A DNA stretch of 64,000 nucleotides from Candidatus Poseidoniales archaeon (lineage in GTDB: Archaea > Thermoplasmatota > Poseidoniia > Poseidoniales > Poseidoniaceae): assembly GCA_003602415.1 (NCBI GenBank), contig QQSK01000005.1:31772-95771 (forward strand), written 5' to 3'. The notes below the pieces were generated by a model. That model saw only the letters and a list, made by a program, of their open reading frames with translations, searched no databases and had not been told where the DNA came from. Shown one piece after another: positions 23,470 through 24,425 of this stretch. Positions within the stretch are counted from its first letter, which is position 1. The number at the start of each line of letters is the position of its first letter. The translations under genes were made by a program, and so were the position numbers.

Positions 23470-24425
23470 GAAAGAAAAAGACCCTCAACAGTCATAAGCG
23501 TAATGCACTGGCACCCGATTACCTGTGAAAGCAGGATGGGAGAACTGGCAGGGGGGTTTCATCCGGGTGGGATATCCGCCCCCCTGCCAGCCTCCGCTGG
23601 TGGCTGCCGGGTCGTCGTCACCTTCCTCTTCTCCGAAGATTAGATTCCAGATCGTTGACTTCTTGTTTCCAAGAAGCCTTCTTCCCAGCGGCCGGGTTTC
23701 TGTTCACCTTCCACCGAAGTGGTTGGATTCCAGGGTGGTACAGTTCAACTCCCCGAAGGTTGTTTCCCTGATACCGGTGTCGATACTTTCTCCGAAGAGT
23801 AGTTTTCGACTGGTTGGTCGTTTCATCTCCGAAGAGATGATCGGTTCCAACCACGGAGGTCCGTTTCCACACCTTTCCGAAGAAAGTTGTGGCGCGGTTT
23901 CCGTCCATGGTAGGTCCGTTTCCATTCAACATCCCGAAAGATGTTTCCTGGTTCGGTTTCCGCCCGTGGTTTCAAAGCCGAAGCTTTTCCACCAAGCCGT
24001 TGTTTGTAACAGAGGTTGTCCCGAAGAACTGTTACTGTTACACCTTCCGGCTAAGCACAGTCATTGGTACTTCCACAACAAGTTGTGGCCCTCCCTGTAC
24101 CATACTTCCAAAGGTTGTATGGCTGATTCTTTGCCGAAGCTCCGAATCATCCTGTGGGTGTGGGAACTTCTTTGTCCGAAAACTCCGATCTTCCTTAACA
24201 CCTCAATCGCTCTGTCTCCAGAGTTCATGACCAACACTTTGCTCGGTTTGAGCAGGCCGGTTGGCAAGGGTCCCAGAGGGTTTCCGAGGAAGCCCTCCAC
24301 CACTCCTTGAGGAGCGGCAACTTCCCCTGAGCGGAGGAGGCAAATAAACTTTACGCTTTTTTTGGGTGTTTTCCAGCGGAAATGAGGGGTTGCGAGGATG
24401 GTTTCCACTGGTTCCACTGGAATTA
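23470..24425 (-). ncRNA. candidate large (~0.95 kb) highly structured non-coding RNA of unknown class
   Basis: GC-rich island (53% versus 39% in hand-counted 100-nt samples) with only overlapping multi-frame ORFs. On the minus strand there are 9 exact CUUCGG copies, mostly capping stems. There is also a GAAA-capped 7-bp stem, a 12-bp helix (23545-23556/23579-23590), minus-only G-U wobbles and a 3' oligo-U tract. Both ends are approximate. Confidence 0.6.
23633..24139 (-). repeat. array of imperfect cUUCGg-capped hairpin modules within the candidate RNA
   Basis: CCGAAG (plus strand) starts at 23633, 23714, 23753, 23792, 23829, 23877, 23978, 24021 and 24134. CCGAAA starts at 23934 and 24176. 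Spacing is mostly 37-57 nt, with outliers of 81 and 113 nt. Confidence 0.75.

Follow-up and report, generated by a model that had tools for sequence, protein, structure and literature searches.

A probable new family of large, structured non-coding RNA in a sublineage of marine Poseidoniales archaea

Introduction

Large, highly structured non-coding RNAs (ncRNAs) are rare beyond ribosomal RNA (rRNA), RNase P RNA and signal recognition particle (SRP) RNA. All described ornate classes (OLE, GOLLD, ROOL and HEARO) are, to our knowledge, bacterial or phage-borne, and we know of no archaeal one. Several ornate RNAs proved to have surprising activities, among them the assembly of RNA-only cages and the guiding of IscB. 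Here we analyze a stretch of 64,000 nucleotides (nt) from a Candidatus Poseidoniales archaeon (assembly GCA_003602415.1, contig QQSK01000005.1, positions 31,772 to 95,771), hereafter called the window. It comes from the Marine Group II archaea, a group without cultured members that ranks among the most abundant archaea of the plankton. Between the fumC gene and a minus-strand gene for a beta-propeller protein lies a GC-enriched block without a credible open reading frame (ORF), and a first-pass annotation made from the sequence alone had proposed that this block encodes a large structured RNA on the minus strand. We find that the block is very probably a new structured ncRNA gene, about 950 nt long.

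The closest described systems are bacterial. OLE RNA functions as a folded RNA or ribonucleoprotein (RNP) and not by antisense pairing (PMC9723947, PMC12286853). Like OLE (RF01071, about 600 nt), the RNA described here is large, chromosomal, single-copy and vertically inherited; both are very highly conserved and combine many hairpins with invariant unpaired stretches, and for both the function is not deducible from sequence. However, OLE is found in Firmicutes beside its partner gene oapA, whereas the RNA described here is archaeal, is about 50% longer and carries a variable array of tandem modules. We rejected membership of the OLE family because there is no covariance-model match, the host belongs to the Poseidoniales, and the neighboring genes are fumC, the WD40-like propeller, DUF6795 and HflX. 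More generally, bacterial ornate large RNAs form RNA-only multimers (dimers and cages), and ROOL and GOLLD (RF03087 and RF01998) self-assemble into RNA-only cages (PMC12286853). The present RNA shares with ROOL and GOLLD the size class (580-800 nt), an ornate multi-hairpin build, a richness in A-minor donors and tetraloops, and discovery purely by comparative genomics. Those RNAs are bacterial and usually associated with phages or prophages, whereas this one occupies a fixed chromosomal slot. Membership of either family was rejected on the absence of a model match, the absence of viral, phage or plasmid relatives, and the fixed chromosomal synteny.

Results

Homologues and genomic distribution

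The block is bounded on one side by the fumC stop codon (23446, plus strand) and on the other by the stop codon of the minus-strand propeller gene (24443-24445). A scan of genome contigs with the single propeller protein gave no match, and an alignment of that protein was needed as the query. The scan with this alignment yielded 80 loci. The homologues of the protein place the host in the Poseidoniales (Marine Group II). For 28 of them (L001-L027 and L031), the DNA downstream of the propeller gene matches the block by blastn, with 68-85% identity per aligned segment, and the propeller proteins of these loci are 50-66% identical. The convergent fumC stop codon closes the far side of the block in every locus that reaches that far. 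Our main alignment and profile comprise 26 sequences from 26 Poseidoniales genomes. In addition, we scanned metagenome contigs for exact matches to a pattern from the invariant core and retrieved 71 marine contigs. These searches thus place the RNA in no fewer than 26 genomes of species rank and 71 contigs from marine metagenomes, and the order propeller, RNA, fumC is identical in all 97 loci, always at one location.

When the 64-kb window was searched with the 26-sequence profile using nhmmer, a single match was obtained (24442-23443, minus strand, E = 5e-299). The same profile found zero copies in the 50 related loci without the block. The core pattern had no match in viral contigs, and blastn searches of phage and plasmid collections gave no match either. 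Given the single copy in the window, the fixed synteny and the lack of viral, phage or plasmid relatives, the RNA is single-copy, chromosomal and vertically inherited. The family is confined to a single sublineage of the Poseidoniales (Marine Group II archaea), and this sublineage includes metagenome-assembled genomes labelled MGIIa-K1. Other Poseidoniales have about 20 nt between the stop codons of the propeller and fumC genes, or carry unrelated protein genes there. An array of repeats or mobile elements (of the REP, MITE or CRISPR kind) was considered and rejected, with one copy in 64 kb and one location in 97 loci; the only repeat that Tandem Repeats Finder (TRF) reports in the block is a 9-nt unit in two copies.

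Covariation and strand

The folded RNA proposed in the first-pass annotation is borne out by compensatory changes in excess of the controls. RNAalifold predicted 138 base pairs from the 26-sequence alignment, with 96.9% of the cells paired, and 56 of these pairs (246 cells) show double changes. Shuffling of the alignment columns gave 30.2 +/- 3.0 such pairs and 66 cells, and none of the 500 shuffles reached any of the observed measures. Sliding the pairing partners by 1-3 columns gave 10-30 pairs and 14-55 cells. We also built a model on 56 unique sequences, metagenomic ones included, in which 107 of 242 pairs have double changes, where a double change was counted when seen in at least two sequences.

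The consensus pairs hold 386 G-U cells but only 43 A-C cells when the minus strand is read, and therefore the RNA is read from the minus strand of the window, as the first-pass annotation had argued. Several of the G-U pairs are fixed in all sequences. The folding energy is indeed unusual compared with dinucleotide-shuffled sequences (z = -4.3 on the minus strand), but the plus strand scores -4.4, so folding energy alone cannot choose the strand. Six of the nine CUUCGG caps close consensus helices, and the remaining three sit on perfect or near-perfect stems when the window sequence is folded by itself.

Two helices that had been read in the single sequence find no support among the homologues. 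For the long-range CCGCUGG/CCAGCGG pairing, covariation instead supports a helix between 23681-23693 and 23602-23614. The 10-bp helix 24373-24382/24402-24411 has two central positions that change without compensation, and two short invariant hairpins fit this region better. Several further pairings were tried and not adopted. Helices closing the 5' end onto the 3' end, predicted by RNAalifold from the 56 sequences, are only 82-85% canonical and contain many A-C cells. For the loop-to-strand pairings CACCC/GGGUG and CACCC/GGUG the partner segments vary without compensation, and a pairing resembling P4 of RNase P, between AAGCG on the 5' side and CGCUU on the 3' side, shows no compensation. A dimer formed by kissing loops was also considered. 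Of the conserved loops, just one, in the invariant hairpin, carries a palindrome (GGAUAUCC). Four homologues (L015, L019, L021 and L026) do not keep it intact, and therefore a kissing dimer at this site is not supported. Inspection of the three-way junction and of the modules revealed no kink-turn or C/D-box signatures.

Selection and coding potential

To place the conservation of the RNA beside that of its flanking genes, we compared the window with eleven homologues. The fourfold-degenerate sites of fumC and of the propeller gene are 0.23-0.46 identical, which is near saturation. Identity is 0.53-0.84 in the 5' domain of the RNA and 0.73-0.93 in its 3' domain. Whole fumC DNA is 0.72-0.78 identical, and this value is exceeded by the 3' domain in all 11 comparisons and by the 5' domain in six. 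A run of about 80 nt in the 3' domain is identical or almost so across all 26 genomes and shows no third-position pattern. The RNA is under purifying selection that is stronger than that on the adjoining housekeeping gene.

The conclusion that the block holds no credible coding sequence stands, as no reading frame is conserved across the homologous loci. The longest stop-free stretches shift in strand, frame and position among the homologues, and one of these (L024) has none longer than 68 codons. No small ORF keeps its start and stop columns in more than 27 of the 56 sequences, and the ORF that reaches this number has 20 codons and lies inside the near-invariant 3' region. Neither the 261-amino-acid (aa) plus-strand ORF nor the other ORFs of the block match Pfam. 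The spacings between motifs are not multiples of three, and the invariant stretches lack third-position variation. Assemblies whose propeller protein is identical to that of the window carry differing called genes across the block.

Public assemblies carry spurious 'hypothetical proteins' over the RNA gene, both in the window (23525-24310, plus strand) and in L152-L172. Their sizes include 261, 247, 227, 143, 137 and 62 aa, and their strands differ between near-identical strains. These calls are a systematic mis-annotation.

Sequence motifs and composition

All nine copies of CCGAAG (plus strand) are where the first-pass annotation had placed them, at 23633, 23714, 23753, 23792, 23829, 23877, 23978, 24021 and 24134. 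Another 24 copies are scattered on both strands over the remaining 63 kb of the window. On the minus strand of 23456-24421 this amounts to 9 copies of CUUCGG, where 0.18 would be expected from the window background. The two CCGAAA copies (UUUCGG on the minus strand) were found at 23934 and 24176. The four UUCG-capped stems that had been quoted read in the sequence exactly as claimed, as do the 7-bp hairpin with a GAAA loop (23659-23676) and the 12-bp helix 23545-23556/23579-23590; the T-rich run proposed for the 3' end was also located.

The annotation had noted one GAAA loop, which exists, but it had overlooked a second signature of the block: GGAAAC occurs in 9 copies (0.24 expected), every one on the minus strand, and is as enriched as CUUCGG. 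The shorter motifs UGGAA (13 copies, 2.3 expected) and GAAAC (13 copies, 1.1 expected) are likewise enriched. The block had also been described as a GC-rich island. Its GC content is indeed raised, at 0.50-0.58 compared with about 0.40-0.43 outside, but the contrast is modest because the genome, like the window, is itself 43% GC. No transfer RNA gene was found by ARAGORN in the whole 64-kb window and no Rfam family in the same stretch, and the RNA described here is its only evident RNA gene.

Comparison with known RNA families

We searched the window and eight homologous loci against Rfam 15 (4227 models) at the gathering threshold, and the window and homologues also permissively at E <= 10. 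No match reached the gathering threshold, in agreement with the first-pass annotation. The permissive search of the window and the homologues gave scattered, chance-level matches only. Among the E <= 10 matches of three divergent homologues there are no RNase P, SRP, rRNA or intron models, and the OLE, GOLLD, ROOL and HEARO models gave no score. Our literature searches turned up neither an account of such an RNA in Poseidoniales nor a large ornate RNA of archaeal origin.

One candidate deserves a closer look. Whalefall-1 (RF01762) scores 22.6 bits in L020 only (gathering threshold 37), where the match at 5151-5201 (plus strand) corresponds to two tandem 5'-domain hairpins of this divergent homologue. 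The window (13.3 bits) and L024 (12.3 bits) score on the antisense strand, and seven other homologues give nothing. We treated the match as chance because it occurs in one homologue while the others lack it. The matches of the window to snoR100, RAGATH-31 and SAM_alpha lie outside the RNA, are on the wrong strand or fall far under threshold. A group I or group II intron was rejected: no model matches, the block is intergenic between two intact stop codons, and its inner ORFs carry no Pfam domain. A fragment of archaeal RNase P RNA, SRP RNA or rRNA was rejected as well, with no model match and with the element missing from the slot in 50 related loci.

The RNA nevertheless resembles archaeal RNase P RNA, SRP 7S RNA and rRNA in several features, namely GC enrichment, cUUCGg and GNRA caps, invariant junction nucleotides, and variable peripheral hairpins around a conserved core. 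Those RNAs are universal, whereas this one is restricted to a lineage, and inspection revealed no conserved element resembling P4 or helix 8. GC-rich ncRNA genes of AT-rich archaea, HgcC to HgcG, were reportedly described by Klein, Misulovin and Eddy in 2002, and they share with our RNA the route of discovery, as GC-rich, ORF-free islands in an archaeal genome. However, they are short (about 100-300 nt), have Rfam entries and come from hyperthermophiles in which the GC contrast is large, whereas the RNA described here spans about 950 nt in a host of 43% GC and has no Rfam match.

Anatomy of the RNA

The RNA consists of two conserved multi-helix domains, one of about 425 nt at the 5' end and one of about 210 nt at the 3' end, joined by a variable array of hairpins (Table 1). 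Its 5' end probably lies at about 24411-24423, and its 3' end would fall at either of the two T-runs. Upstream, an A/T-rich box overlaps the propeller stop codon and is not found after the propeller stop in genomes without the RNA. It is followed by a variable A/T spacer, and conservation of the RNA begins about 25 nt downstream of the box. We consider the box a candidate promoter because its spacing and composition fit the archaeal B recognition element (BRE) and TATA box. The upstream regions of genes within the window showed no clear local promoter motif. At the other end, the T-runs are candidate oligo-T terminators, and the UUUU run is kept in nearly all homologues.

Table 1 Features of the RNA locus, in 5' to 3' order of the RNA (window coordinates)
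Feature	Coordinates	Strand	Basis
Whole RNA gene, about 950 nt	23456-24421	minus	nhmmer, blastn, conservation boundaries in the alignment
A/T-rich box RAATAR-TGTTATTTWT over the propeller stop codon (candidate promoter)	24432-24449	minus	conserved in 55 unique upstream sequences
5' terminal element: tandem CCAGUGGAA x2, or invariant 4-bp hairpin UCCA/UGGA	24403-24421	minus	TRF, period 9, 2 copies
Conserved 5' domain	24421-23996	minus	several supported hairpins, several invariant unpaired stretches
Two adjoining 5'-domain hairpins: GCCGCUCC/GGAGUGGU and GGAGG..CUCG..CCUCU	24275-24318	minus	covariation
Invariant core of the 5' domain, partly single-stranded and partly helical, including GUGUUGGUCA	24157-24235	minus	56-sequence model
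5-bp hairpin, every pair covarying	24210-24223	minus	56-sequence model
Long hairpin capped by UUUCGG	24163-24194 (within 24157-24202)	minus	56-sequence model
Helix CACAG/CUGUG around three hairpins, one CUUCGG-capped (24134-24139)	24056-24156	minus	covariation
Near-invariant hairpin GUAACAGUUCUUCGGGACAACCUC with internal loops and CUUCGG cap, closing the 5' domain	23996-24051	minus	covariation
Variable middle array, tandem modules of about 55-59 nt	23700-23995	minus	direct repeats D2, D6 and D10, spacing 55-59 nt
Three-way junction opening the 3' domain, including near-invariant strand GGUGACGACGAC	23602-23693	minus	covariation
Junction, closing helix	23681-23693/23602-23614	minus	
Junction, GAAA-capped hairpin	23657-23678	minus	
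Junction, CUUCGG-capped hairpin	23630-23641	minus	
Invariant 16-17-bp hairpin GGAGGCUGGCAGGGGGG...CCCCCCUGCCAGUUCUCC with inner hairpin AUCC-CACCC-GGAU	23539-23595	minus	100% paired
Small hairpin CCUG-CUUUCA-CAGG (23522-23535) and conserved 3' tail GCUUAUGACUGUUGAGGG	23482-23535	minus	alignment
T-runs (candidate terminators): UCUUUUUCUUUCUU (23468-23481) and UUUU (23456-23459)	23456-23481	minus	sequence, alignment columns 1085-1108

The flanks of the 5' terminal element are invariant, while its centre varies freely. Its perfect tandem (24403-24420) forms the first conserved nucleotides of the RNA, and a related CGCUGGAAAA lies 30 nt downstream. The tandem could act in the RNA as a hairpin, or it could be a protein-binding site in repeated form or a DNA element close to the promoter. 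Within the 5' domain, the helix of the GCCGCUCC/GGAGUGGU region has 8 pairs (99.5% paired), two of which are G-U in all 26 sequences, and the hairpin adjoining it has 9 pairs, five with double changes. In the 56-sequence model, every pair of the first two helices in the 5' core has double changes (5 of 5 in 224-228/233-237, 4 of 4 in 245-248/287-290), as do 11 of 11 in 253-266/271-284. Two pairs of the CACAG/CUGUG helix covary, from A-U to G-C in five sequences and from C-G to U-A in three, and the same model places helices 299-303/318-322, 325-334/338-347 and 359-365/368-374 in the hairpins that it encloses. The hairpin that closes the domain has double changes in 5 of 5 and 2 of 4 pairs in the 26-sequence alignment and appears in the larger model as helices 406-412/435-441 and 418-421/426-429.

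The modules of the middle array are long hairpins, each capped by UUCG and interrupted on both strands by AAA bulges (GG-AAA-CCG and GG-AAA-CGG). The array contains six of the nine CUUCGG copies and six of the nine GGAAAC copies. One of its stems, 11 bp long (23882-23892/23867-23877), has double changes in all 11 pairs in the 56-sequence model. Among the homologues, the 5' anchor and the 3' core are separated by 594 to 867 nt, and therefore the array expands and contracts. Its internal direct repeats suggest that the modules arose by tandem duplication.

In the three-way junction that opens the 3' domain, the closing helix has 9 pairs, 5 of them with double changes (99.6% paired), and the two hairpins have 9 and 4 pairs, with double changes in 6 and 3 (26-sequence alignment). 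The long hairpin that follows is the best-conserved part of the RNA. It shows one covariation, from G-C to A-U in eight sequences, and is otherwise identical in the 26 genomes, and we presume that it is the functional core.

Neighboring genes

On the strand of the RNA, upstream of the propeller gene (25508-27745, minus strand), are genes for an HflX-type GTPase (GTP-bdg_N and MMR_HSR1 domains) and for a membrane protein with DUF6795 and CarboxypepD_reg. The HflX, DUF6795 and propeller genes look like an operon because they are only 20-40 nt apart, and the string is kept whether or not a lineage carries the RNA.

On the far side of fumC stands a gene for a protein of 238 aa (21260-21976, minus strand) that has no Pfam match; sulfotransferase-like HxxKxxGT and RHPxxR motifs can be seen by eye. 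This gene occupies the same position in 22 of the 24 RNA-bearing loci with enough flank, and no RNA-lacking locus extending to fumC has it there.

A different clade of Poseidoniales has, in place of the RNA, about 2.5 kb of protein genes in the slot between the propeller gene and fumC (L034 5082-7612; also L035, L036, L038, L040 and L042). These genes encode a 274-aa membrane protein rich in Q and M, a 312-aa ORF and a small membrane ORF. Because another clade fills it in this way, the slot seems to be a recurrent insertion point.

Discussion

The proposal of a large structured minus-strand ncRNA of no known class is supported by the absence of an Rfam match, the absence of a conserved reading frame, the covariation and the asymmetry of G-U pairs. 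As it matches no described RNA family, the RNA looks like a new large ornate RNA. Large ornate ncRNAs are a known phenomenon, within which this RNA appears to form a new class and an undescribed archaeal family. The best explanation of the whole is likely a new ncRNA family of about 0.95 kb on the minus strand, with a putative promoter and terminator of its own, that would act as an RNA or RNP. The RNA would be transcribed alone from the A/T-box promoter at the propeller stop codon and end at an oligo-T run. It may then accumulate as a stable, compactly folded RNA or RNP, and would not act by antisense pairing. The invariant 3' hairpin and the junction strands could form a binding or active centre, the UUCG caps may serve as inert folding nuclei, and the many GAAA and AAA elements could provide A-minor-type packing of helices. 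For the mechanism itself, we regard the case for a scaffold or RNP as evenly balanced.

Several observations weigh against this explanation. Every retrievable contig that contains the whole block is a metagenome assembly, and independent transcription, ends and abundance are putative. None of the assembly contigs with the locus, whether metagenomic or of undetermined source, has ends that coincide with the RNA. The RNA starts about 25 nt past the stop codon of the same-strand propeller gene, at the end of the HflX/DUF6795/propeller string, and could be a co-transcribed 3' tail. Sister lineages do without the RNA at the propeller-fumC slot. The long-range helices that would tie the 5' domain to the 3' domain have no covariation support. 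Nothing ties the RNA to a protein partner: the 238-aa gene is the only one that tracks the presence of the RNA, yet this association is confounded by phylogeny.

One alternative to an independent RNA gene is a long structured 3' untranslated region (UTR) of the propeller messenger RNA, or of the whole operon, acting in cis, for example as a stabilizer, as a platform for processing or as insulation from convergent transcription of fumC. The RNA does lie on the strand of the propeller gene and begins directly past its stop codon, the same-strand genes upstream are closely spaced, and the RNA invariably accompanies the same two genes. We nevertheless consider a 3' UTR unlikely. Many lineages without the RNA conserve the propeller gene, including its C-terminus, and have the two stop codons about 20 nt apart; the RNA is better conserved than the gene it would serve (73-93% identity for its 3' domain against 57-68% for propeller DNA); a conserved A/T box stands at the stop codon and a T-run is present; and a body of 950 nt with invariant junctions would go far beyond the usual needs of a UTR. 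A divergent form of a known RNA (RNase P RNA, SRP RNA, an rRNA fragment or a group I or II intron), or the relic of a repeat or mobile element, is very improbable, although such RNAs typically have UUCG and GNRA loops and invariant junctions, and although the middle region is internally repetitive. None of the 4227 Rfam models matches at its gathering threshold, and the RNA is missing from the slot in sister lineages, where a universal RNA would have been kept. A relic is further countered by the single copy, the fixed synteny in 97 loci, the lack of viral, phage or plasmid matches, and the absence of a reverse transcriptase or transposase nearby. The chance that the block is a protein-coding gene or a recently decayed pseudogene is negligible. 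The candidate would be the 261-aa plus-strand ORF, which exists and is called as a gene in public assemblies, but it is broken, shifted or on the other strand in most homologues (none longer than 68 aa in L024), has no Pfam match and, like every other ORF of the block, offers no start and stop pair common to more than 27 of 56 sequences; moreover, stem substitutions are compensatory, and motif spacing and invariant stretches do not follow codons. The protein-coding, mobile-repeat and divergent-known-RNA explanations are effectively excluded.

Two further proposals are special cases of a new structured ncRNA and concern what it does. The RNA might be a protein sponge or multivalent scaffold of the CsrB and RsmZ type, in which the GG-AAA-C(C/G)G modules serve as repeated binding sites that titrate an RNA-binding protein or assemble it. 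Like those RNAs it iterates a short motif (here GGAAAC/UGGAA) on hairpins, with GGAAAC, UGGAA and GAAAC all far above expectation, and its middle region is made of tandem modules whose number varies among lineages. However, sponges conserve little beyond their repeats, whereas here the non-repetitive 5' and 3' domains are conserved best. The array is almost gone in some homologues (L024 and L031) that keep the core, GGAAAC occurs in mixed contexts (tetraloop, bulge and helix end), and no candidate partner protein was found. We know of no CsrA in this archaeal group, and we find it doubtful that the RNA is a sponge. A ribozyme, or an RNA that assembles with itself, would have a catalytic core or form a homo-oligomeric cage as suggested by analogy with ROOL, GOLLD and OLE. 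The size, the rRNA-like invariance of unpaired junction nucleotides and the density of GNRA-type and A-rich elements are typical of elaborate tertiary structure, and the multimers formed by large bacterial ornate RNAs (PMC12286853) offer a precedent. This would be rather improbable, as no ribozyme family matches, the palindrome GGAUAUCC in a conserved loop is broken in four homologues, and there is no phage or mobile context as for GOLLD and ROOL.

Returning to the new ncRNA family as a whole, it is conceivable, though we offer this tentatively and by analogy, that it represents an archaeal RNA machine of about 1 kb that acts by its own three-dimensional fold, either as a new ribozyme or RNP core or as a self-assembling architecture like OLE, ROOL and GOLLD, with an array that is tunable by lineage. 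The locus is a concrete and well-delimited target for metatranscriptome mapping, chemical probing and cryo-electron microscopy. The Poseidoniales RNA of about 950 nt would extend the ornate kind of large RNA to the Archaea and, if this is true, a class of large ornate RNA would exist in abundant archaea of the surface ocean.

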